From: Bacteroidota bacterium
GTDB lineage: Bacteria > Bacteroidota > Bacteroidia > Bacteroidales > Dysgonomonadaceae
Direction of reading: 5' to 3'
DNA: 60,810 nt
Assembly: GCA_023418255.1 (NCBI GenBank)
Contig: JAEZZZ010000032.1
Coordinates: 1-60,810 of the forward strand
Below, piece after piece: positions 41,672 to 52,806 of this stretch. Numbering within the stretch: position 1 is the first letter of the stretch; each line of letters opens with the position of its first letter. Both the position numbers and the translations under genes were made by a program. The notes under the pieces were generated by a model. The model saw only the letters and a list, made by a program, of their open reading frames with translations. It was not told where the DNA came from and did no database searches.

Positions 41672-42166
41672 CAATATCATTTTTTAGATACTACGCCTGA
41701 TATAAATTTTTCTTTTGCACGCATATTAATGGAATACGTAAACTAGGTTTAGGTAACAAATTCTATTATTAATGAGCTGTTAACTAACTACATAAGCATT
41801 TTATGATAAATGCTTCCAGCATCACGGTTATCTATTTTGAGTAGAATTTACCTTCCTTTTAAATAATAAAATAAACCTTATTATATTTTAATGAAAATAG
41901 AATTATTATGTATATATTTGTGGGGGATTAAGAAAGGAGATATATCGGATGAGTACCGAAAGTATGACTAATCAATTAAAGATACTGATTTCAAAAAATA
42001 GTCTGGGGAAATGTAATAAAAAAGCCAAACATTCACAACTCTTTGTTACGTTCTTTCAAGTCCATGTGGTGCGATTATGAGTTTGAATGTTTGGTGCTAC
42101 AAAAGTAATAAAAATAAACCAAATAAAAAAATACGTGTAGTTTAACACAAAAATCTTTCTTAAATA

Positions 42167-42197
42167 TTTGTTACATTAGGTTTTTTATCTATCTTTG
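42167..42197 (+). promoter_or_regulatory. candidate Bacteroidota sigma-A promoter of the cas operon
   Basis: TTTG (42167-42170), 19 bp spacer, then TATCTTTG (42190-42197). This matches the -33 TTTG / -7 TAnnTTTG consensus. The ATG at 42218 follows 20 nt later. Confidence 0.5.
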
Positions 42198-42217
42198 CAA
42201 AAAAATAAGAAAAACCT

Positions 42218-42409
42218 ATGAAGATGTTTAATTTCGACGACGGGCATTATCCAATGGATGAAATAGAGCAACAAAACAATTGGCAAATACGAATTCTTAT
42301 GATGCATAATGAAGGCATGAGTAAACAGGAAATTATAGATAATTGTGTTATAGAAGATATAGATAGTTGGAAAGAACAAGTGGAAATATTTTACAATACA
42401 AAAAGATGA
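42218..42409 (+). CDS. 63-aa hypothetical protein, first ORF of the cas operon (possible small HTH protein)
   Basis: The ATG lies 20 nt downstream of a TATCTTTG -7 box. Its stop overlaps the ATG of the next gene (ATGA at 42406-42409). NEGMSKQEIIDNCVI resembles an HTH recognition segment. Coding status is unproven. Confidence 0.5.
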   Translation: MKMFNFDDGHYPMDEIEQQNNWQIRILMMHNEGMSKQEIIDNCVIEDIDSWKEQVEIFYNTKR

Positions 42410-44352
42410 GCATATTTAAATCATATACCGGAAATGCAATGCTGAACAATGCGTTGATGACCATTGAAGTGTTAGCAGACCTAAATGATGTAACTGAGAT
42501 AAGCATTGATGTAATCAAACGTCTGTTCGTTGATTTAGAGTTGACGAAGATGAACAAACGTTTTAAGAGTTATACCATGCTTTTTACAAGAAATGGACCG
42601 CTACACAACGATAAAAAATTAGGAGAGAAAATATATTCTACTTTAATTGAAAATATTTTGTCTGTAGACAACAACACTGGCGATAAAGTGTGTGAACTCT
42701 CCGGTTTAAAATTCAGCAAATCGTTTGAGGAAATATATTACGATACGCTAAAAGAATTGAAAATTGAAGAAAAAGAAATTAAGAAAAAGGATTTGACTAT
42801 CGGAAGAACTTGGTTTCCATTAATTGGTGGTCTAGGTTCGGACGCGCAGGCACTTCCTCTTGCCAAATATGCAATCCAAATTCACCCGATTTGTATTGTT
42901 GTTATGCAGTTTTTGCCTTTTTCCGGCGTTTTATACAAAGGAGGCATTATGCTGGCAGATTCTTCAAACTTTAAGTTTGCAAAATATTTAGTACAAAAAA
43001 ATGTCTCGGAAGTGAGAAGTAAAATTGAGAGAACAAGTAAATCCGAGCAAATTGAAAATATCAAGGAGAATAACAAAGGAGATTTTATTCGAAAAGCTAT
43101 AGAGTATTTTACAGAAAAAATAGACTTCTATGAAGATACGTTTACCGATTTAAATTTATGGAGTTTCTCAAATTCCGGCACAGGTGCAAGTTGTTTTATA
43201 GACCGAGTACCAAATCAGCTTTTGCTTAAATTGATTGAGATTCAAAAGGAACCTTTACTGGTATCTGAACTGACGTCAATCCTTAGGAATCCCAAAATTG
43301 CAGAAAGTTTTTTGGAATCGCTTGAAGGCAATCAAATGTGGTATGGTTTGTTCCCGTATAAATTTGGAACAGGAGCTAAAGCCGTTGAGTTTGATGGCGT
43401 AAGTATCCATTTTATGGAAAAATATATTGAACAAACAAAACAAAAGGTCAATCTGCCTCTTATTAAACACATTGCAACCCTTATAGATAAATATAAAGAC
43501 AAAAACCTAACTAAAATAGTCGAAAAAAAAGATGGCTATAACGATGATAATTTCACATTTGATATATACAAAGTGTTGGTTATGGCTACCGGAGAGGGAG
43601 ATTTTAATCCTTTGCATTTTATAGAATTGTTACCCAATGAGCTTCCGGTAAGTCCTTATTTCAATAAATATAACAAATTGATACATTTCTATTGTTACAA
43701 AAATGAAAAGCTTGATTACAATCTTGAGTTACCAAAAAATCTTGAGAAAAATAAGGTGTACCAAGCCTTACTCTGGATAAATTCTATTATTCATAGTGAT
43801 GACAGGGTGGAACGGATAAAAAAAGACCTTATCGACCCTCAACAGTTTGGCTATGTAAACTATATCGATTTGCTTTTACGATATTCTAAAAAGCATAAGA
43901 ATATTTTAGAGCAGATAATGGCGGTTTTTTATAACGAAAGTCCCTATTTTGCTCGAAAAGGTTTAAATCAATTGTTACGACTTTACTATTCTTGGGACTT
44001 GCATAGCAAAGATGCCACTCCTCAGCCGATAGAGACAACATTTAGACTACCTGGTTTTATTAAAAATATTGAGCAATTCGCTCAGGATTATCATGCATAT
44101 TATATGGATAAATATGAAGATAAAGAAACCAAGGAACTTCCTATTGCTAAATACGAAAAACAAATTGATGCGATTCAGTTATATCCTACAGATAACCTTT
44201 TGATATGGATTAACGATGTTTTAGGCAAAATGGAGAAATCAGAAGTTGTCAAAAAGAAATGGTCCGAAGATGAGTTTTTATATGATGACGATGGCAATTT
44301 TGCAACACAATGGGTTAAATTTATACTTAAATATCAATTACAAAATCAATAA
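42406..44352 (+). CDS. candidate Cascade large subunit (Cas8b-like by position only)
   Basis: 648 aa, or 661 aa from the alternative ATG 42367. It occupies the slot immediately upstream of cas7-cas5-cas3. I recognise no motif, so the call is purely positional. Confidence 0.55.
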   Translation: MSIFKSYTGNAMLNNALMTIEVLADLNDVTEISIDVIKRLFVDLELTKMNKRFKSYTMLFTRNGPLHNDKKLGEKIYSTLIENILSVDNNTGDKVCELSGLKFSKSFEEIYYDTLKELKIEEKEIKKKDLTIGRTWFPLIGGLGSDAQALPLAKYAIQIHPICIVVMQFLPFSGVLYKGGIMLADSSNFKFAKYLVQKNVSEVRSKIERTSKSEQIENIKENNKGDFIRKAIEYFTEKIDFYEDTFTDLNLWSFSNSGTGASCFIDRVPNQLLLKLIEIQKEPLLVSELTSILRNPKIAESFLESLEGNQMWYGLFPYKFGTGAKAVEFDGVSIHFMEKYIEQTKQKVNLPLIKHIATLIDKYKDKNLTKIVEKKDGYNDDNFTFDIYKVLVMATGEGDFNPLHFIELLPNELPVSPYFNKYNKLIHFYCYKNEKLDYNLELPKNLEKNKVYQALLWINSIIHSDDRVERIKKDLIDPQQFGYVNYIDLLLRYSKKHKNILEQIMAVFYNESPYFARKGLNQLLRLYYSWDLHSKDATPQPIETTFRLPGFIKNIEQFAQDYHAYYMDKYEDKETKELPIAKYEKQIDAIQLYPTDNLLIWINDVLGKMEKSEVVKKKWSEDEFLYDDDGNFATQWVKFILKYQLQNQ

Positions 44353-44355
44353 ATT

Positions 44356-45372
44356 ATGGCAGAATTAAAAAACATTACAGGTGCATTGTTAATTGATGCA
44401 ACAGCGGCATTTTTAAATGGCGCTGGGTTAGGAGCCGGAGAGAACAAAAACAAAGTATTGCCTAAAACTTTTTGGCAAAAAGTAGATAACAAAAGAGTGC
44501 AAGTGCCATACGTTTCGGCACAATCTTGGAGACGTTGGTTGCGAGACACGACAAACGAAGAAAACAAATGGCAACCAAGTGAACTAAAAGCGATAGATAC
44601 GTCCACAAAAGGCTCAACCAACAAAGTGGCTACAGAACTTAATCCTATCATGTATCCCGAAGATGACTTGTTTGGATATATGAAAAGTGGTGGAAGCGGC
44701 GAAGAAAGTGTGCAACGAACGTCCCCCTTTAAAACGTCCATTCTTAAAGGAGTGAAAAATTCTTACGTGCTCTCTACTGACGAAGCTTTTGTGTTCCCTA
44801 AAAATGGCACTCCACTGCCATATACAACCGAGTTTTATTCTACATTTTTGGAAGGTTTCTTCAATTTAGAATATTATCGTTTGGGAGTTTATGAAAACTA
44901 CAGCAGCAAAGTTGAATTGTCTCAACAAATCATAGAAAAACATGCTGATAAACTCACTCAAAGCGATTTGCCGGAAAAAGCAAAGCGTTATGAATTAAAA
45001 AATGCAGAAGAAAATCGCAAAAACAACGCCAAAGGTCTTTTGAAAGGATTGGCATTTCTAAGAGGAGGCGCTAAGCAAGCGGCTTTTGGTGCAGATGTAT
45101 CGCCTAAAATATTAATTCTTGCCGGGATGGAATCTGCGAATCCCGTGTTCAACAATATTTTTGAGTGTGAAAATGGAATGGCTAAAATCAAAATTGATGT
45201 TCTCAAACAAATCGAAGCTGATTACAAAAAAAGATTAGCAACACCCATATATATTGGTATTCGAAAAGGCTTTGTAGTCAATGAAGAAGATTTAAAAGAA
45301 TTAGGTGACGGCTTCGTAGTAGATTCACCTGTTAAAATTGTGGAATCTTTTACTGAAAAGTACCTGAAATAA
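44356..45372 (+). CDS. cas7: Cas7 (Cst2/DevR-like Cascade backbone subunit)
   Basis: 338 aa. The N-terminus ITGALLIDATAAFLNGAG and YVSAQSWRRWLRD resemble Cst2/DevR-type Cas7. It starts 3 nt after the preceding stop. Confidence 0.7.
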   Translation: MAELKNITGALLIDATAAFLNGAGLGAGENKNKVLPKTFWQKVDNKRVQVPYVSAQSWRRWLRDTTNEENKWQPSELKAIDTSTKGSTNKVATELNPIMYPEDDLFGYMKSGGSGEESVQRTSPFKTSILKGVKNSYVLSTDEAFVFPKNGTPLPYTTEFYSTFLEGFFNLEYYRLGVYENYSSKVELSQQIIEKHADKLTQSDLPEKAKRYELKNAEENRKNNAKGLLKGLAFLRGGAKQAAFGADVSPKILILAGMESANPVFNNIFECENGMAKIKIDVLKQIEADYKKRLATPIYIGIRKGFVVNEEDLKELGDGFVVDSPVKIVESFTEKYLK

Positions 45373-45373
45373 G

Positions 45374-46048
45374 ATGAAAAGAGTACTTCAAATAAAATGC
45401 AATGGATGGACCTCCTCTCCTAAAATGCCTTTTATATTATCGGGAAATTCCGTTTGCATGCATACGCCTTCATATTCCTTGATTTTAGGAATTTTAGGCT
45501 GCTGCATGGGACGATATGTAAAAGCAGACGAAGTGGAAATTGGCTTTCACTATCAATATGACGCGGTTTCTAAAGATACTGAGACGCGTCACCGATTACA
45601 AAACAAGCAAAACCAAATAAAGCCTCATGCAAAAGGCACTGATGCCTATGTGAGAGAGTTCCATTCATTGCCTAAACTTACCATTTGGCTCAATCGATTA
45701 GATTGGAAAGAACAGCTGCAAAATCCGATTGGAACCCCTTCGCTTGGCGCTTCACAAGATTTATTAAATATTCAGGAAGTAAAAGAAGTTGAGGTAATTG
45801 AATTAGAAAAAGCAAAAGTTTCCGGAACAATGATTCCTTTTGAAATTGGAGAAAAGGCGGGAGGACAACTTGTCCAGCTGGCAGAGTCCTTTGAGGAAAT
45901 CGGAGATATTGGAGAAGGAAGAAAAGCCGTAAACTCTAAAATATTTATATCCATACCACATGATGGATTTGCTGAGTTACGGACTAAAAATCTTTTTGAG
46001 GTGGTTGACACACAACAGCAATTTTATTTGCACAAATTTGGTCAATAA
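45374..46048 (+). CDS. cas5: Cas5
   Basis: 224 aa. PSYSLILGILGCCMG near the N-terminus and PSLGASQDLL are typical Cas5 signatures. It starts 1 nt after the cas7 stop. Confidence 0.7.
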   Translation: MKRVLQIKCNGWTSSPKMPFILSGNSVCMHTPSYSLILGILGCCMGRYVKADEVEIGFHYQYDAVSKDTETRHRLQNKQNQIKPHAKGTDAYVREFHSLPKLTIWLNRLDWKEQLQNPIGTPSLGASQDLLNIQEVKEVEVIELEKAKVSGTMIPFEIGEKAGGQLVQLAESFEEIGDIGEGRKAVNSKIFISIPHDGFAELRTKNLFEVVDTQQQFYLHKFGQ

Positions 46049-48313
46049 ATGTTCGATTTCTCTTCGATATATGCCAAAAGTGACAATTACACAACCTTGG
46101 AAATGCATACCAACGATGTGTTGATTGCTGCTGAAAACCTAATCGAAAGCTTGCCACTGACAGACAAGGAAAAAGAGTATTATCTACCCAAATTAAAACG
46201 CATGGCGGTGTTACATGATTTGGGTAAAATTCATGCTTTTTTTCAGCAAAACTTGCTGGATAGCAAAAAACTGACAATACGCCATGAGTTAGTTTCTTTT
46301 TGGTTTTGCGAGAATTATCTAAATATGTCAGTCGATGAAATATTTGCTATTGCCACTCACCATAAAGGAATTATTAAAAACGACGATAAAGGCAGACTCG
46401 ACTCTGGAAAACACTTTTCTCCATTTGAAAAACTTTGCAAGATGGAAGAACAGAAGCTACAATCTTCTACACTAAAAGATTGGTTAACAAAGTTTGAAAT
46501 CAAGATTCCATTCAAGGAAAAGCAGAATAATAACTTTAAAATCTCTATAAAATGGAAGAAAATTTTCCACTTTTATAAGCAATCTGAAGAGATAAAAGAT
46601 AAAAACCTTCGGACAGAACTCTCAATGTGCCGTGCTTTATTGATGGCTGCCGACCACATTGGCTCAGCTAAAATGGAAGATAAAATTCCAAAGCCAAAAC
46701 CAATTGCCGTACAGGATTTTCAGCCGACCGACGGGAAACAACATTTCGAATTGAGAGATTTCCAGAAAAAGATGCTCAACGTGATATACAGCTGTATTTT
46801 GCATAGTCCGACAGATTCCGGAAAAACGGAAGCGGCTTTGGCTTGGGTGTACGCAAATCAATCTTCGAATTCGCGTTTATTCTATCTTTTGCCGTACACT
46901 GCAAGCAGCAACGCCATGGTAAATAGACTGAAAACTGTTTTTGGAGATAACAAAGTTACACCTTTGCACTCTAAAACGCTCGACTATTTTTATGATGAAC
47001 TGGATGATGAGGATGAAATTTATAAAAAGCATAGAATAGCAAAATCGAAAAGTAGCTTATCGCGAGAAATCTTCTTCCCGGTTAAAGTGGCAACCATGCA
47101 CCAACTACTAAAAAACACGTTAAAGGGAAAAGGATGGGAATTTGCGTTATTAGAATATAAAAACGCGTTATTCATAATTGATGAATTCCACACATACAAC
47201 GCATTTTATACCGGACTCTTACTTGCTTCCGTAAAACTTCTGATTCGATATTTCAATGCAAAAGTGATGTTTATGTCTGCCACGATTCCGGCTTTTATGC
47301 AAGATTTGATATTGAAACATGTATTTGATAACAGCGAATCCGTTACTTTCAAACCGGATAAAAACAGCATATCCGACAAGCAAATATTAGAAAGAAAAAG
47401 ACACCAACCTATCTGTATCGATTCTAGTTTGAATGATAAGTTTGAGTTAATCGAACATTATTTACCTAACCATAGTGTTCTTATCATTGTCAATAATGTC
47501 AAAACGGCACAAGATATATTTGAGTCAGAATTATTGAATGGGATTGATAATAAATGCTTATTGCACGGCGGATTGCATGCCAAGGACAGAAAGATAATTG
47601 AAGAAAAAATCACTTCCAAAGATAAAACAACGCGTCCACGAGTCCTTGTCGCGACACAAGCGGTAGAGGTAAGTTTGGATATCGATTATGATGTGGCTTT
47701 CATTGAGAATGCGCCAATCGACGCACTTATTCAACGATTCGGAAGGGTAAACAGAGCCGGACAAAAATATATAAAAGCAAAAAAACACTCTTCTGATTCT
47801 CGGTACAATACCGTTCCTGTCTATTTATTTAAAAATATCATAGGAAAGACGCCTTTTTATGACAAGGAAGTGTTGGAATCAACTTGGAATGAGTTTGAAA
47901 AACTAAATGGCAAACAAGTTTCCGAAGATGATTTGATAGAAGTCTGTAATCAAGTGTATAAAAACGGATATTCCAAAGAGCAACAAGAGGATTTCGAACA
48001 TGGATTTCATAACGCGACAATCAATAACTTTGAAACAGATTGGGTGGCAGGAGATTGGAATCGTTGGACCGATGAAATGTTCGATAAAAATCAGAAAGTG
48101 GATATGCTATGTAGTAATTTGATGGATGAATATGACCAGCTTATAGAACAAAAAAATTATATTGAAGCCAATCGATTAATTGTGCAAGTTTATCCACATT
48201 ATTTAGTGAATAATGCGCCTTTTGATAAAGTTCGAAATCTCTGGCTTGGATATGAATATGACTATATTCCAATGATAGGATATAAAAAAAAAGAAGATGA
48301 TTTATTTTTGTAA
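46049..48313 (+). CDS. cas3: Cas3 (fused HD nuclease + SF2 helicase)
   Basis: HD-domain residues (EMHTND, VLHDLGK, RHELVS, ATHHKG) in the first ~110 aa. Helicase motifs follow: I SPTDSGKT, II IIDEFH, III MSATIP, V VATQAVEVSLDID, VI QRFGRVNRAG. Confidence 0.9.
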   Translation: MFDFSSIYAKSDNYTTLEMHTNDVLIAAENLIESLPLTDKEKEYYLPKLKRMAVLHDLGKIHAFFQQNLLDSKKLTIRHELVSFWFCENYLNMSVDEIFAIATHHKGIIKNDDKGRLDSGKHFSPFEKLCKMEEQKLQSSTLKDWLTKFEIKIPFKEKQNNNFKISIKWKKIFHFYKQSEEIKDKNLRTELSMCRALLMAADHIGSAKMEDKIPKPKPIAVQDFQPTDGKQHFELRDFQKKMLNVIYSCILHSPTDSGKTEAALAWVYANQSSNSRLFYLLPYTASSNAMVNRLKTVFGDNKVTPLHSKTLDYFYDELDDEDEIYKKHRIAKSKSSLSREIFFPVKVATMHQLLKNTLKGKGWEFALLEYKNALFIIDEFHTYNAFYTGLLLASVKLLIRYFNAKVMFMSATIPAFMQDLILKHVFDNSESVTFKPDKNSISDKQILERKRHQPICIDSSLNDKFELIEHYLPNHSVLIIVNNVKTAQDIFESELLNGIDNKCLLHGGLHAKDRKIIEEKITSKDKTTRPRVLVATQAVEVSLDIDYDVAFIENAPIDALIQRFGRVNRAGQKYIKAKKHSSDSRYNTVPVYLFKNIIGKTPFYDKEVLESTWNEFEKLNGKQVSEDDLIEVCNQVYKNGYSKEQQEDFEHGFHNATINNFETDWVAGDWNRWTDEMFDKNQKVDMLCSNLMDEYDQLIEQKNYIEANRLIVQVYPHYLVNNAPFDKVRNLWLGYEYDYIPMIGYKKKEDDLFL

Positions 48314-48329
48314 TTAAATTTGAATAACT

Positions 48330-48851
48330 ATGTCTAAAACAGCACTTAAAAAGCATTTACAAGCACTTCCAAAAGAACGAATTATTGAAACACTGTTGGA
48401 TGCATACACGAACAGTCCTCCTGTGAAAGAATATTTTGACTTCTATCTAATTCCTAATGAGACAGAAAAAGCAGAAAAATACAAAACAATTATAAAAAAA
48501 GAATTTGATTTGTATAATCCGGAAAAAGCCGGATTAAAATATTCTGTGGCTAAAAAAGCTATTTCTGAATTTGCGACATTTAAACCTTCTCCGGAAGTAC
48601 TGGCTGATGTCATGCTTACCCTTCCAGAAGCAGCGTGCGAATTCACTTACACCTATGGCGATATGGAAGAATCTTTTTATGATGCAGCCGTCAATAACTT
48701 TCGAAGAGTATTGATTTATATGGAAAAAAACGGTATTTTACAAAAATTTAAACAGCGCTGTGCTAATTGTGTAAAACATGCTTCGCCATGCGGTTATGGT
48801 TTTGCCGATGAAATAGAACAGCTTTTTTATGAATATTATGAATCAAAATAA
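48330..48851 (+). CDS. 173-aa hypothetical protein embedded between cas3 and cas4
   Basis: Intact ORF starting 16 nt after cas3 and ending 22 nt before cas4. It appears helical, acidic and aromatic-rich, with a C-terminal Cys cluster (CANCVKHASPC). It matches no Cas family I recognise. Confidence 0.65.
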   Translation: MSKTALKKHLQALPKERIIETLLDAYTNSPPVKEYFDFYLIPNETEKAEKYKTIIKKEFDLYNPEKAGLKYSVAKKAISEFATFKPSPEVLADVMLTLPEAACEFTYTYGDMEESFYDAAVNNFRRVLIYMEKNGILQKFKQRCANCVKHASPCGYGFADEIEQLFYEYYESK

Positions 48852-48873
48852 TTATTTATAGCGAGATAACCCT

Positions 48874-49407
48874 ATGCAAATCACCGGAACGCATTTCAAC
48901 TATTTTCAAGTGTGTAAACGAAAGTTATGGCTTTTCTCACACGGCATTAACATGGAACACACGTCCGATTTGGTGTATGACGGCAAGTTAATACACGAAA
49001 GCACTTATCCGCAGCGAGCCGAACGCTATGAAGAGGTGCTTGTTTCGGCAGATTATAATGGTATGCGGCTCAACGGAAAGATTGATTTTTTTGACAGCCT
49101 CAAGCAATGTGTGCACGAAATCAAGCGAAGCGACAAAGTGGACGAAGCACACACGCGCCAATTGAAATTTTATTTGTGGCTTTTGGAATTAAACGGTATC
49201 AAAAACACATACGGCATATTGGAATATCCCAAACTTCGGAAAACCGAAGAAATATTTCTATCCGATGCCGATAGAGCCTCGCTGGCGCGAATAGTTGCTG
49301 AAATCAAAGAACTTGTAACTCGAAAAACCTGTCCGCCGACAATTAATGCGCGACTTTGCAAAAGTTGCAGTTATTACGAATTTTGTTATGTGGAGGAAGT
49401 GCAATGA
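48874..49407 (+). CDS. cas4: Cas4 (RecB-like exonuclease with Fe-S cysteines)
   Basis: One N-terminal Cys (YFQVCKRKLW) plus C-terminal CKSCSYYEFC. Nuclease motifs IDFFD...EIKRS and QLKFYLWLL. Confidence 0.9.
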   Translation: MQITGTHFNYFQVCKRKLWLFSHGINMEHTSDLVYDGKLIHESTYPQRAERYEEVLVSADYNGMRLNGKIDFFDSLKQCVHEIKRSDKVDEAHTRQLKFYLWLLELNGIKNTYGILEYPKLRKTEEIFLSDADRASLARIVAEIKELVTRKTCPPTINARLCKSCSYYEFCYVEEVQ

Positions 49408-50423
49408 AGAAAACCTACTATCTTTTCAATCCCGGTACGTTGCAACGACGGGACAATACACTCAAATTTGTGCCTGTCGAAGAGGACGAAGACGGTCAAA
49501 TACAGCACATGGGAAAACCGCGATATCTGCCCGTTGAGGACATAGCCGAACTCTATGCTTTCGGTTCACTTACGGCAAACAGCGCATTGTATAATTTTTT
49601 GGGACAAAAAGGGATTGCCGTGCATTTTTTCGATTATTACGAAAACTATACCGGTTCGTTTATGCCACGCGATGGATTGCTCTCCGGGAAAATGATATTG
49701 GCACAAACGGCACATTTTCAGGACAAGAAAAAACGACTTTTTATCGCACGCCAATTTATTGAAGGAGCCGCCTTTAATATGTTGAAAAATCTGCGCTATT
49801 ACAACACACGCGGTAAAGATTTGGATGGCGTAATCGAAGCTATCGAAGGCTATGCAGCGCAAATCGCTACGGCAACACAAACCGATATGCTAATGGGAAT
49901 TGAGGGCAACATTCGACAAACATATTACGAAGGATTCAACCTGATTATTCACGATTTTGATATGAACGGACGCACCAAACAACCGCCACAAAACGAGGTG
50001 AACGCGCTTATTTCGTTTGGCAATATGATGTGTTACAGCCAATGTTTGCGTGCTATTCACCAAACGCAGCTCAATCCCACAATCAGTTATCTGCACACAC
50101 CCGGCGAACGCCGTTATTCACTTTCGCTGGACGTTTCCGAAATTTTCAAACCGCTTCTTGTGGACAGAATGATTTTTAAATTGTTGAACAAACGTGAAAT
50201 ACAGTCGAAGCATTTTGAAAAAAGGCTCAACAGTTGCCTTTTGAATCCCACCGGGAAAAAGATTTTTGTAAAAGCTTTCGAAGAACGCTTATCGGAAACA
50301 TTCAAACACCGCGCGTTGAAACGAAATGTCAGCTACCGACATCTTATCAAATTGGAATGCTATAAATTAACAAAGCACTTGCTTGATATCGAAGAATATA
50401 AACCGTTCAAAATGTATTGGTGA
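49404..50423 (+). CDS. cas1: Cas1 integrase
   Basis: 339 aa from ATG 49404, which overlaps the cas4 stop (ATGA). YLFNPGTLQRRDNTLKF N-terminus, and catalytic-core segments GIEGNIRQ and YLHTPGERRYSLSLDVSEIFKP. Confidence 0.9.
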   Translation: MKKTYYLFNPGTLQRRDNTLKFVPVEEDEDGQIQHMGKPRYLPVEDIAELYAFGSLTANSALYNFLGQKGIAVHFFDYYENYTGSFMPRDGLLSGKMILAQTAHFQDKKKRLFIARQFIEGAAFNMLKNLRYYNTRGKDLDGVIEAIEGYAAQIATATQTDMLMGIEGNIRQTYYEGFNLIIHDFDMNGRTKQPPQNEVNALISFGNMMCYSQCLRAIHQTQLNPTISYLHTPGERRYSLSLDVSEIFKPLLVDRMIFKLLNKREIQSKHFEKRLNSCLLNPTGKKIFVKAFEERLSETFKHRALKRNVSYRHLIKLECYKLTKHLLDIEEYKPFKMYW

Positions 50424-50689
50424 TGTATGTAATTTTAGTGTACGATATAGGCGAAAAGCGGGTAGGCAAAATGATTAAACTTTGCAGACAATATTTAAAT
50501 TGGATTCAAAATTCAGTTTTTGAAGGAGAAATTTCCGAAGTTAAATTAAAAGAATTAACTTTGAAAGCAAAGAAAATAATGAAAGAAGAGGAAGACGACA
50601 GTCTGATAATTTTTTCAAGTCGCACAGCTTCATTTTTAGATAAACAAATTATTGGAAAAGAGCGAGCTAGTACAGATATTTTTTTATGA
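50423..50689 (+). CDS. cas2: Cas2
   Basis: 88 aa from ATG 50423, overlapping the cas1 TGA by 1 nt. MYVILVYDIGEKRV beta-1 strand with the conserved Asp, and NSVFEGE. Confidence 0.85.
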   Translation: MYVILVYDIGEKRVGKMIKLCRQYLNWIQNSVFEGEISEVKLKELTLKAKKIMKEEEDDSLIIFSSRTASFLDKQIIGKERASTDIFL

Positions 50690-50780
50690 TAAGTTGTCGA
50701 TGAAGGTTATTTTATGAAGCAACGCTAGACGCAAACTTCTCAACGATCTTTGACATATTGAAAATCAACATATAACATAG

Positions 50781-50824
50781 GTTGTCGATCTGCGGGGATT
50801 TTCTTATCTTTGCATATCGACAAC
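50781..50824 (+). promoter_or_regulatory. candidate pre-crRNA promoter enclosed by a 9-bp inverted repeat
   Basis: TATCTTTG -7 box at 50805-50812. It is flanked by GTTGTCGAT (50781-50789, whose TTG sits at the -33 position) and its reverse complement ATCGACAAC (50816-50824). Confidence 0.4.
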
Positions 50825-50863
50825 TTTTGTCCCTATTTTTGGTGAATTCATAAATTACTATTG

Positions 50864-50886
50864 GCTGATAATCAGCCATTTTTTCG
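50864..50886 (+). other. terminator-like hairpin plus T-run 15 nt upstream of the first repeat
   Basis: The palindrome TGGCTGATAATCAGCCA (50864-50880) is followed by TTTTTT (50881-50886). Confidence 0.4.
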
Positions 50887-50900
50887 CCGTAATCTAACGG

Positions 50901-51133
50901 CTTTTAATTGAACCATAAGGAATTGAAATTTCGCTTTTCGGTGCGGTCGGTTCCGGAATACTTCTGTCTTTTAATTGAACCATAAGGAATTGAAATCGAA
51001 AAAATGCCCCAAAAACTCCCCCAATTTCACCCCAAACTTTTAATTGAACCATAAGGAATTGAAACGCGGCAAAGAAATAAGATAGTTGAAGTAACTACAG
51101 ATGACTTTTAATTGCACTATTTGTAGAATTTTT
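50901..51133 (+). CRISPR. CRISPR array: 3 intact 29-nt repeats, 1 degenerate terminal repeat, 3 spacers
   Basis: The repeat CTTTTAATTGAACCATAAGGAATTGAAAT occurs at 50901-50929 and 50968-50996. A third copy at 51037-51065 has C as its last base. The degenerate copy at 51105-51133 matches in its first 10 nt and at 17/29 overall. Spacers are 38, 40 and 39 nt (50930-50967, 50997-51036, 51066-51104). Confidence 0.92.
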
Positions 51134-51363
51134 TCCTTAAAAACCTTCAAAAAACAATACGGTAGAAGAACTCACATAAAACCAATGAAATTCTATTTTA
51201 TCAACCAAACATTCTTTCATAAACAAAGCCTATCTGAATTTCTTAATTTTATATAATTATCCCGTTTATAACATTAAAAAACAAGACCATTACTAAAATT
51301 ATATCTATATTAGCAGTAAATTTATTTTATATTTTACATTTATCAATCTAACAATAGTAGACA

Positions 51364-52806
51364 ATGACATCACGTAGAAATTTTCTAAAAAAGAGTGGAT
51401 TAGGACTCGCCGCGCTTGCCGTTAACCCAACTCTGGTAAGCAGCAAACAGGCTATGCCCAACAAAAAAAAATATGTTTGCGAGCGACCGCCAATTCATAA
51501 GAGAAACTTCACATCCCAATCGATTGAACAAACCATCGTACGCCTAAAATCAAAAATAAAAGATCCGAAACTGGCATGGATGTTCGAAAACTGTTTTCCA
51601 AACACTCTGGACACAACCGTACAGTTTAAGATGAACAACGGTAAACCCGATACATTCGTTATCACAGGCGATATTAATGCCATGTGGCTACGCGACTCAT
51701 CGGCACAAGTATGGCCCTATCTTCCGTTGGCAAAAAAAGATGCACAGCTAAAAGCCATGCTTGCCGGAGTTATCAATCGCCAAACGCAATGTATTTTGAT
51801 TGATCCCTACGCGAACGCGTTTAATCCACACCCGATTGAAAACAGCGAATGGATGAGTGACAACACCGATATGAAGCCCATGTTGCACGAACGCAAATGG
51901 GAAATCGATTCACTCTGTTATCCCATCCGTTTGGCATATAACTACTGGAAAACTACGCGCGACACCTCTGTGTTTGATACCGATTGGAAAAAGGCAATGA
52001 AGCTCGTGGTAAAAACATTTAAAGAACAGCAACGCAAAGATGGATTAGGTCCGTACAAATTTTTACGCAAAACAGACCGAGCGCTAGATACCCTACCCAA
52101 CGCCGGGTACGGACACCCTGTTAATCCGGTGGGACTGATTGTATCGTCGTTTCGTCCTTCAGACGATGCGACTACTTTCGGCTTCCTGATTCCATCAAAT
52201 ATGTTTGCTGTCACATCCTTGCGTCAGCTGGCAGAAATTGCTCGAACCGTAACTGGCGAAGCAGCATTTGATCAGGAATGCATTGCCCTAGCGGATGAGG
52301 TGGAAAAAGCCATTCAACAATATGCCATCGTATCGCATCCGGTATTTGGCAAAGTGTATGCATTTGAAGTAGATGGGTTTGGAAACAGCTATTTTATGGA
52401 TGATGCCAATGTTCCCAGCTTATTGGCAATGCCCTATTTGGGTTTAATAAATCAAAACGACACCATCTATCAAAATACACGCAAATTGGTATTGAGCAAA
52501 TACAATCCTTATTTCTTCAAAGGCTCTGCAGCAGAGGGAATTGGCGGCCCTCATATCGGTTACGACATGATTTGGCCGATGAGCATCATCATGCGCGCAC
52601 AAACAAGCTGCGACGATGAAGAAATTCGCTATTGCATTCGAACACTGCGCGATACGGATGGAGATACCGGTTTTATGCACGAGTCGTTTCATAAGGACGA
52701 TCCGACCAAATTTTCGAGAAAATGGTTTGCATGGGCAAACACATTGTTTGGCGAGCTAATTGTGAAGCTGGAACAAGAAAACAAAATGCACCTGATAAAT
52801 CAATAA
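51364..52806 (+). CDS. GH125-family exo-alpha-1,6-mannosidase
   Basis: Tat-like signal SRRNFLKKSGLGLAALA. WLRDSSAQVWPYL, SFRPSDDA and ANTLFGELI segments typical of GH125 (formerly DUF1237). Confidence 0.82.
   Translation: MTSRRNFLKKSGLGLAALAVNPTLVSSKQAMPNKKKYVCERPPIHKRNFTSQSIEQTIVRLKSKIKDPKLAWMFENCFPNTLDTTVQFKMNNGKPDTFVITGDINAMWLRDSSAQVWPYLPLAKKDAQLKAMLAGVINRQTQCILIDPYANAFNPHPIENSEWMSDNTDMKPMLHERKWEIDSLCYPIRLAYNYWKTTRDTSVFDTDWKKAMKLVVKTFKEQQRKDGLGPYKFLRKTDRALDTLPNAGYGHPVNPVGLIVSSFRPSDDATTFGFLIPSNMFAVTSLRQLAEIARTVTGEAAFDQECIALADEVEKAIQQYAIVSHPVFGKVYAFEVDGFGNSYFMDDANVPSLLAMPYLGLINQNDTIYQNTRKLVLSKYNPYFFKGSAAEGIGGPHIGYDMIWPMSIIMRAQTSCDDEEIRYCIRTLRDTDGDTGFMHESFHKDDPTKFSRKWFAWANTLFGELIVKLEQENKMHLINQ

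Follow-up and report, generated by a model that had tools for sequence, protein, structure and literature searches.

To our knowledge, few accessory factors of spacer acquisition are known, and type II-C CRISPR systems are thought to have nothing beyond Cas9, Cas1 and Cas2. Among the closest described systems are Csn2, found in type II-A, and Cas4, found in types I, II-B and V. Selfish or addiction modules can also be embedded in a cas operon, CreTA of the Haloarcula type I-B system being an example. In this study we analysed a gene located between cas3 and cas4 in a type I-B locus of a Bacteroidota bacterium (Dysgonomonadaceae; GenBank assembly GCA_023418255.1, contig JAEZZZ010000032.1, positions 1 to 60,810; this whole stretch is hereafter the window). 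The gene encodes a 173-aa protein, P0001, of the family DUF6155 (Pfam PF19652). We propose that DUF6155 heads the adaptation block and that its product, without being an enzyme itself, serves as an accessory or adaptor of spacer acquisition or of its control. To this statement as a whole we give a probability of about 0.45. Three points are very likely to be correct: the gene is a member of a CRISPR-linked clade of DUF6155, it belongs to the adaptation block and not to the Cascade/Cas3 block, and it is under strong purifying selection. P0001 is therefore the probable product of a new CRISPR accessory gene.

Shmakov et al. (2018; bioRxiv 10.1101/270033) predicted CRISPR-linked ancillary genes from their genomic neighbourhood. 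The great majority of their candidates were in type III loci, and their text describes no Bacteroidetes, I-B or II-C family of the present kind. DUF6155 is known only as a Pfam domain of unknown function, and we found no description of its CRISPR linkage; no paper on DUF6155 or PF19652 was found, subscription literature being outside the search. NCBIfam and PADLOC have no cas-type hidden Markov model (HMM) for the family. At E<=0.01, P0001 matched none of their models, including those for Cas4, Csn2 and other named adaptation cofactors, and it matched no model in PHROGs.

The open reading frame (ORF) of DUF6155 extends from ATG to TAA. Its ATG follows the cas3 stop codon (48311-48313) after 16 nt, and its end is separated from the cas4 ATG (48874) by 22 nt. 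The intact, co-oriented and tightly packed ORF reported in a preliminary description of this DNA was thus confirmed. We regard the ORF as a real gene and not a chance reading frame, as judged from its sequence relatives, because P0001 scored 82.5 bits against PF19652 (cut-off 27; E 4e-23) and because its homologues at E<=0.001 numbered 252 among 90% clusters and 866 representatives among 50% clusters. In the Pfam match, residues 1-151 corresponded to positions 1-151 of the 170-position profile. PF19652 was likewise matched by each of the 76 diverse relatives of one alignment.

The CRISPR association was analysed in 80 species-level loci with DUF6155 relatives (cited by L numbers), which were fetched together with flanks of at most 10 kb per side and annotated by tblastn with Cas proteins and by clustering of the called ORFs. 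Close relatives, defined by at least 48% identity, accounted for 71 loci. In 56 of these, cas genes were found in the fetched flank: 28 loci were of type II-C, 26 were type I-B variants, and two had adaptation genes only. Of the 34 close-relative loci in which both flanks span at least 5 kb, 29 had an effector as well as an adaptation module. DUF6155 lies between the two modules in most of the 29 and elsewhere in the locus in a few (L054, L076). In nearly all cas loci it shares the strand of the cas genes and the orientation of the gene that follows it. The usual place is after the last effector gene (cas9, cas3 or, in one I-B order, cas7) and ahead of cas4, cas1 and cas2, either directly or with other small genes between. 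The downstream gap, 22 nt in the window, is below 50 nt in about half of the loci, and the upstream gap ranges from an overlap to about 400 nt, sometimes holding a perfect palindrome. According to PADLOC, the type I loci comprise four I-B effector variants, namely TNEAP-like, PGING/Csp, HMARI-like and one with the order cas5-cas3-cas8b-cas7. Independent metagenome and NCBI contigs showed the same arrangement.

As background, 208 of the 401 Bacteroidota genomes in the sample had cas1, and less than 1% of a genome is taken up by a cas locus. The majority of the close clade lies in cas loci, far above this background. Co-evolution with a core cas gene was also observed, as a Spearman correlation of 0.75 with Cas1 in type I loci and as a separate II-C subclade, the II-C correlation being only 0.25. 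The guilt-by-association check across Bacteroidota suggested in the preliminary description therefore gave a massive enrichment of close homologues in cas loci. The enrichment did not extend to the more distant relatives, which are not CRISPR-linked. In the phylum sample, DUF6155 genes occurred in 31 of the 401 genomes, and only two of the 31, namely a Pedobacter-like genome and that of the window, had the gene in a cas locus; the whole Pfam family is thus not a CRISPR-neighbourhood family.

In a maximum-likelihood tree rooted on a helicase-associated clade, the CRISPR-linked sequences formed one clade of 65 rows with a Shimodaira-Hasegawa-like approximate likelihood ratio test (SH-aLRT) value of 93. 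Type II-C-linked genes formed one subclade of 30 (27 from II-C loci and three without cas context), and only 4 label changes were needed, compared with 23.6 in shuffles. The four I-B effector variants were completely intermixed in the same tree. No cas genes were found near the Prevotella clade (0 of 9 loci) or the helicase clade (0 of 16).

The helicase clade (L118-L133, for example L123:8098-9633) represents the core of PF19652, and in a single genus 13 of 15 genomes carry a member of it. The proteins of this clade, of about 170-185 aa, are homologous to P0001 over residues 1-151 and have the same motifs, LKK..L..L.KE.LI, KYK..I..EF, GD[IM]xExFY and G[WY]GFxD. They are, however, only 28-37% identical to P0001, lack its cysteine cluster and are never near cas genes. 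A gene for a RadD-like superfamily 2 helicase lies 77-111 nt downstream, followed by a DEAD-box helicase gene; in three genomes a 2-hydroxyacid dehydrogenase gene intervenes before the helicase. A TAnnTTTG box is kept about 26 nt upstream of the start in this clade. The pairing with a RadD-like helicase in this ancestral clade may give a weak hint at DNA metabolism. Genes of the Prevotella clade (36-40% identical) lie after dnaK or near Fic genes. More distant relatives are carried by Bacteroides and cyanobacterial plasmids, beside thioredoxin, GIY-YIG nuclease or type I restriction genes. On a Bacteroides finegoldii plasmid (NZ_OY725908.1; L138:4959-5844) a thioredoxin gene ends 10 nt ahead of a distant DUF6155 homologue, in a region with many small unknown ORFs near parA/parG and ssb. 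In a metagenome-assembled genome (MAG) of Dysgonomonas, two DUF6155 genes are in tandem (L100:10001-11040), with no cas genes within 10 kb.

To which module the gene belongs was analysed by blastn of window positions 42000-51500 against the fetched loci. The Tannerella locus L040 aligned in one continuous segment (48311-50928, 69% DNA identity) that reached the first repeat, and the Tannerella locus L039 aligned over 48314-50711; for the two loci together the DNA identity was 69-70%. The aligned stretch starts at the stop codon of cas3 and takes in DUF6155, cas4, cas1, cas2 and the leader. Upstream of the cas3 stop codon, blastn detected no Tannerella DNA similarity except short patches of cas3 motifs. 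Protein identities between the window and L051 (Tannerella forsythia ATCC 43037) were 26% for Cas3, 70% for DUF6155, 66% for Cas4, 76% for Cas1 and 80% for Cas2. The window's Cas3 was likewise only 26-34% identical to the Cas3 proteins of loci in which DUF6155 was 52-70% and Cas1 69-79% identical. Over 91 non-independent pairs of type I loci, the Spearman correlation of DUF6155 identity was 0.75 with that of Cas1 and -0.05 with that of Cas3. Because the DNA block begins at the cas3 stop codon, because DUF6155 co-varies with Cas1 and not with Cas3, and because the downstream gap is short, the comparisons lend good support to the view that DUF6155 belongs to the adaptation block and cas3 to a different evolutionary block.

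Among the four candidate roles named in the preliminary description (a Cas11-like small subunit, an adaptation accessory factor, a regulator and a domesticated anti-CRISPR-type protein), the adaptation accessory factor is the best fit to the shared DNA block with cas4-cas1-cas2 and the leader and to the co-variation with Cas1 but not Cas3. That description had also noted that the AT-rich composition matches the effector genes and not cas4-cas1. The numbers were right, the GC content being 33.7% for DUF6155, 42% for cas4/cas1 and 33-38% for the effector genes. A place in the effector module does not follow from them, since cas2 is also AT-rich (29.7%) and GC content cannot assign DUF6155 to a module.

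The conservation of DUF6155 is higher than that of Cas1. Pairwise comparison of type II-C loci gave median identities of 74% for DUF6155, 61% for Cas1 and 34% for Cas9. At four-fold degenerate sites of these loci, DUF6155 genes were 34% and cas1 genes 31% identical, where composition alone would give 25-27%. Since synonymous sites are nearly saturated and protein identity is high, strong long-term purifying selection on DUF6155 is well supported. Conservation above that of Cas1 suggests that DUF6155 may have a nucleic acid or a conserved component of the host as its main partner, rather than the Cas proteins, which evolve fast.

P0001 has a mass of 20 kDa. It was described beforehand as helical and rich in Glu, Tyr and Phe, and both statements hold: the protein contains 11.0% E, 8.1% Y and 6.4% F, together with 11.6% K, and its AlphaFold2 model, calculated with 36 relatives, has nine helices and no strands (mean predicted local distance difference test score, pLDDT, 92.5; predicted template modelling score 0.81). 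Foldseek against the PDB gave nothing at E<=0.001, the BFVD viral structures gave no fold match, and a sequence profile search of the PDB gave a best E of 0.19. In VIA-align against 48,161 chains, Get4 ranked first with a Z of 10.2, ahead of designed helical repeats and of PPR, TPR and HEAT-like proteins. Since Z values up to 10.2 are the usual level for helical proteins, the predicted fold is called a generic alpha-solenoid. Comparison with Cas6, proposed earlier, ended in the exclusion of a Cas6/RAMP protein, because the model is all-alpha (nine helices, no strands, pLDDT 92.5) and no Cas6 HMM matched.

The hallmark motifs of the family, GD[IM]xExFY and G[WY]GFxD, appear in P0001 as GDM-E-x-FY and CGYGF-x-D. 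No catalytic-looking motif is kept family-wide, and P0001 shows no toxin-like or nuclease-like motif. Pfam detected no helix-turn-helix (HTH), winged HTH, ribbon-helix-helix or other DNA-binding domain in P0001 or the 76 relatives. The only secondary Pfam match among the 76 was Cut8 (8 of 76, best E 0.0015), which is not interpretable. An N-terminal SAP/HeH-like DNA-binding motif was considered and dropped, being unsupported by any model. A class I Fic antitoxin was also dropped, as [ST]xxxE[GN] was not seen by eye in P0001.

The four cysteines of P0001 are at positions 103, 144, 147 and 154, and the C-terminal cluster CANCVKHASPCGYGF noted in the preliminary description was confirmed. As a CxxC...C cluster, it is a feature of the type I-linked forms only. 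C103, C147 and C154 are near-invariant across the close clade, in cas-linked and cas-free members alike, but C144 is kept in 23 of 26 type I-linked forms and replaced by Ala in 21 of 27 type II-C-linked forms. Because C103, C147 and C154 correspond to Q, I and Q in the helicase clade, the aligned sequences indicate that the cluster is a derived feature of the close clade. The cluster is probably a structural metal site (Zn or Fe-S).

The features of the locus are summarised in Table 1. The true start of cas1 is likely to be the ATG at 49404, overlapping the cas4 stop, and not the start of the longest ORF at 49356, because a near-invariant Met is found at residue 17 in the homologue alignment. 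Both matches to the Bacteroidota -7 motif TAnnTTTG overlap the cas3 stop region, and the pair might possibly be an internal promoter of the adaptation operon. Such a box upstream of DUF6155 is present in the window but, in a motif scan, was not generally kept across the CRISPR clade. In a scan for internal sigma-70 promoters and terminators, sites were no commoner than in shuffles, and none of the terminator-like sites lay between cas3, DUF6155 and cas4. No cas6 gene adjoins cas8b in the region looked at (41672-42366). The genome to which the window belongs has a sole Cas6_C match, which lies within an open frame of 265 aa on a different contig (G000 contig C52:8882-9256).

Table 1. Positions of the DUF6155 gene and of the surrounding CRISPR-cas features in the window
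Feature	Coordinates	Strand	Evidence
DUF6155-family gene (P0001, 173 aa)	48330..48851	+	ORF/translation, Pfam PF19652 E 4e-23, AlphaFold2 model
cas8b, cas7b, cas5b (type I-B effector genes)	42367..46048	+	PADLOC (Cas8b E 6.5e-173)
cas8b	42367-44352	+	
cas3 (HD + helicase), last effector-module gene	46049..48313	+	Pfam, NCBIfam, PADLOC
cas4	48874..49407	+	Pfam Cas_Cas4 E 1.9e-50
cas1 (type I-B)	49404..50423	+	NCBIfam cas1_HMARI E 1.1e-138
cas2	50417..50689	+	Pfam CRISPR_Cas2 E 4.1e-22
CRISPR array (three 29-nt repeats, two spacers)	50901..51065	+	Repeat search (family D1)
Evolutionary block DUF6155-cas4-cas1-cas2-leader-first repeat	48311..50928	+	blastn against Tannerella loci
Bacteroidota -7 motif TAnnTTTG, two matches: TATTTTTG (48303-48310) and TAAATTTG (48315-48322)	48303..48322	+	Motif scan

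A gene in this position had been thought unusual. On the contrary, the junction between effector and adaptation modules in Bacteroidota is a recurrent slot for extra genes. Across the 80 loci its occupants were UPF0158, RhuM, Fic-HTH, an AAA ATPase (ATPase_2), the four-helix-bundle protein IVP, HU-HIG, DUF3024 with SWIM and a DUF6036 nucleotidyltransferase. PDDEXK_3, PRiA4_ORF3 and a gene related to REP-associated tyrosine transposases (RAYT) also occur in this slot. A literature search found nothing linking PRiA4_ORF3 to CRISPR, and one for UPF0158 with CRISPR gave nothing relevant. In about a dozen loci, some of them cas loci and some not, UPF0158 (PF03682) comes directly 3' of DUF6155 (L045, L054, L062, L068, L076, L088, L092, L103 and L005:8541-9104 among them), and the two genes possibly form a cassette. 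Fic adjoins DUF6155 in three separate clades (L041/L051, L102/L104 and L112/L114), two of which are outside CRISPR loci, and RhuM adjoins it in L046, L091 and L096.

The RAYT-related gene, of about 200-230 aa, has 23 copies in these cas loci, with or without DUF6155. It scored 56.7 bits against NCBIfam REP_Tyr_transpos (cut-off 80) and E 3.5e-4 against Pfam Y1_Tnp. It usually lies directly upstream of cas1 or beside cas4, in type II-C loci (L053:10582-11196, L060, L061, L067, L073, L082, L086, L107) and in type I-B loci (L068, L094, L103, L171:264-878, L175, L148). Of 52 CRISPR-clade loci, seven have perfect palindromes with stems of 9-17 bp in the gap that separates DUF6155 from the effector module (L050, L056, L067, L070, L087, L094 and L041), 17-58 nt upstream of the DUF6155 ATG, and further loci have imperfect stems. 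The palindromes could be terminators or repetitive extragenic palindromic (REP)-like elements linked to the RAYT-like gene. In L051 (12378-18790), about 6.4 kb of other genes lies between cas4 and cas1-cas2, and a RhuM fragment of about 80 aa follows Fic. A 9.8-kb contig of a Campylobacterota MAG labelled Sulfuricurvum sp. (L105, DZBD01000094.1) carries a Bacteroidota-like cas9-DUF6155-ATPase_2-cas1-cas2 locus, probably through mis-binning and otherwise through horizontal transfer.

In the mechanism that we propose, DUF6155 would be expressed together with Cas4-Cas1-Cas2 (in type II-C, with Cas1-Cas2) and would modulate prespacer supply or integration, possibly through linking the integrase to a conserved host factor of DNA metabolism. 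A stronger form of this proposal is that the CRISPR-linked DUF6155 is a bona fide Cas protein, a metal-cluster adaptor for the Cas1-Cas2 integrases of types I-B and II-C in Bacteroidota that couples spacer capture to a host DNA-repair or helicase factor; we consider this form unlikely. A complex prediction with Cas1, Cas2, Cas4 and DUF6155, each with its own alignment, scored 0.02, which is evidence neither way.

Several facts weigh against an accessory role in spacer acquisition. DUF6155 is absent from seven genomes of the sample in which Cas1 has 60-76% identity to that of the window, the same range as in DUF6155-carrying loci. Their junction is empty or is occupied by PRiA4_ORF3, PDDEXK_3, a RAYT-like gene or some other, unknown gene. 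The slot also hosts CRISPR-independent genes of mobile or defence type, and a hitchhiker would map in much the same way. About a fifth of the close clade is outside cas loci, in islands of unknown genes or by GmrSD; no cas genes were found in 5 of the 34 well-flanked close-clade loci, of which L048 and L090 lie in small islands of unknown genes, and another close relative adjoins GmrSD. The correlation between DUF6155 and Cas1 is weak in type II-C loci, at 0.25. Some pairs have a far higher synonymous identity in DUF6155 than in cas1 (L053/L067: 63% against 31%). These last two facts suggest that DUF6155, or a short segment containing it, is sometimes exchanged and ends in the same slot. Furthermore, NCBIfam, PADLOC, Foldseek, VIA-align and the PDB profile search gave no homology or fold match to a known adaptation factor. 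No domain fusion was found; a search for fused DUF6155 forms of 304-2000 aa turned up none, which is weak evidence.

In the main rival reading, which we consider somewhat less probable than our own, DUF6155 is mobile cargo hitchhiking in a permissive slot, with a function unrelated to CRISPR and inherited with the adaptation block by linkage only. Its own role would then be, for example, in defence or counter-defence or of toxin-antitoxin type, possibly paired with UPF0158 or with Fic/RhuM. Such a view accounts for a slot that is common to Fic-HTH, RhuM, ATPase_2, RAYT-like, PRiA4_ORF3, UPF0158, IVP, PDDEXK_3, HU-HIG and DUF6036 genes, and for related DUF6155-free loci that have other such genes or nothing. 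It also accounts for the recurrence of the DUF6155-UPF0158 pair inside and outside cas loci, the presence of Fic beside DUF6155 in three separate clades, and the independent recent exchange in some pairs. Close-clade copies by GmrSD or in islands with DUF3024/SWIM or DUF488/DUF6266, as well as distant plasmid relatives of Bacteroides and cyanobacteria beside type I restriction-modification and GIY-YIG genes, point in the same direction. Of a hitchhiker one would not, however, expect a clade specific to CRISPR that spans several orders and includes a subclade specific to type II-C, nor would one expect it to lie on the cas strand ahead of cas4/cas1 in nearly all 56 loci, nor to be conserved above Cas1 at saturated synonymous divergence. 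P0001 is also without a PADLOC or PHROG match and without toxin-like or nuclease-like motifs.

A role in regulating the adaptation genes, or the locus as a whole, appears rather improbable to us; it could be exerted by DNA or RNA binding through a basic N-terminal half or by sequestering a transcription factor, and the cysteines might serve as a redox or metal sensor. The position as the first gene of the adaptation block, the clade-specific cysteine cluster and the thioredoxin gene directly ahead of a distant homologue on the Bacteroides plasmid are consistent with it. So is the charge distribution across the relatives, with a mildly basic N-terminal half (net +4, pI 9.2) and an acidic C-terminal half (net -6) family-wide. 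On the other hand, no HTH, winged HTH, ribbon-helix-helix or other DNA-binding domain was detected, the fold is a generic alpha-solenoid, and the upstream regions of the CRISPR clade have no conserved operator-like repeat or promoter motif. A Cas11-like small subunit was suggested in the preliminary description, and P0001 is small, helical and encoded beside the effector genes of the window. The suggestion is contradicted by the type II-C loci, which have no Cascade and carry 28 of the 56 CRISPR-linked relatives. It is also contradicted by the lack of co-variation with the effectors: DUF6155 is common to four I-B effector variants, and the DNA block begins after cas3. No Cas11, Cse2, Csm2 or Cmr5 model matched, and Cas11 was not among the best fold matches, which alone does not exclude it. 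Taken together, these facts make a small subunit extremely improbable. For a domesticated anti-CRISPR or Aca-type protein of phage origin, also suggested there, the sole support is that a small acidic protein lies inside a cas locus. P0001 matched no PHROG family and no BFVD fold and has no HTH typical of Aca; among 50,697 phage records only one, together with one IMG/VR contig, carried a relative, and both are 36-40% relatives of the Bacteroides-plasmid type. A phage origin of this kind is hence very hard to sustain. The interpretation in the preliminary description was thus partly supported, and the accessory role in spacer acquisition remains the reading that we prefer.

DUF6155, which heads the adaptation operon in types I-B and II-C and is more conserved than Cas1, is a concrete candidate for a new adaptation cofactor or regulator. 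Were it a new Cas adaptor, type II-C would gain its missing "fourth gene", and a coupling to a host repair or helicase factor would explain the conservation above Cas1. Were it a hitchhiker, it would, with the RAYT-like, UPF0158, PRiA4, Fic and RhuM genes, mark the Bacteroidota junction as a hot spot of mobile genes, which would be useful for annotating these loci and for understanding the recombination of cas modules.

In comparison with known systems, DUF6155 resembles the selfish modules of cas operons, such as CreTA, in that it occupies the junction of two modules, can be absent, and at times moves without the cas genes. It differs from them in having no toxin or antitoxin signature, in being far more conserved than typical toxin-antitoxin genes and in forming a CRISPR-type-specific clade. 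Like Csn2 and Cas4, it is in the adaptation operon by cas1-cas2, is restricted to certain subtypes and is, by its position, dispensable for interference; the four conserved cysteines of the type I-linked forms are a further likeness to Cas4. It has, however, neither sequence nor fold similarity to Csn2 or Cas4 and none of their nuclease or DNA-ring features, and it co-occurs with Cas4 in type I-B and is optional even among close relatives of Cas1. With the ancillary genes of Shmakov et al. (2018) it shares the kind of evidence, namely a high "CRISPRicity" and co-evolution with a core cas gene, and it differs from them in that it spans both class 1 and class 2 loci.

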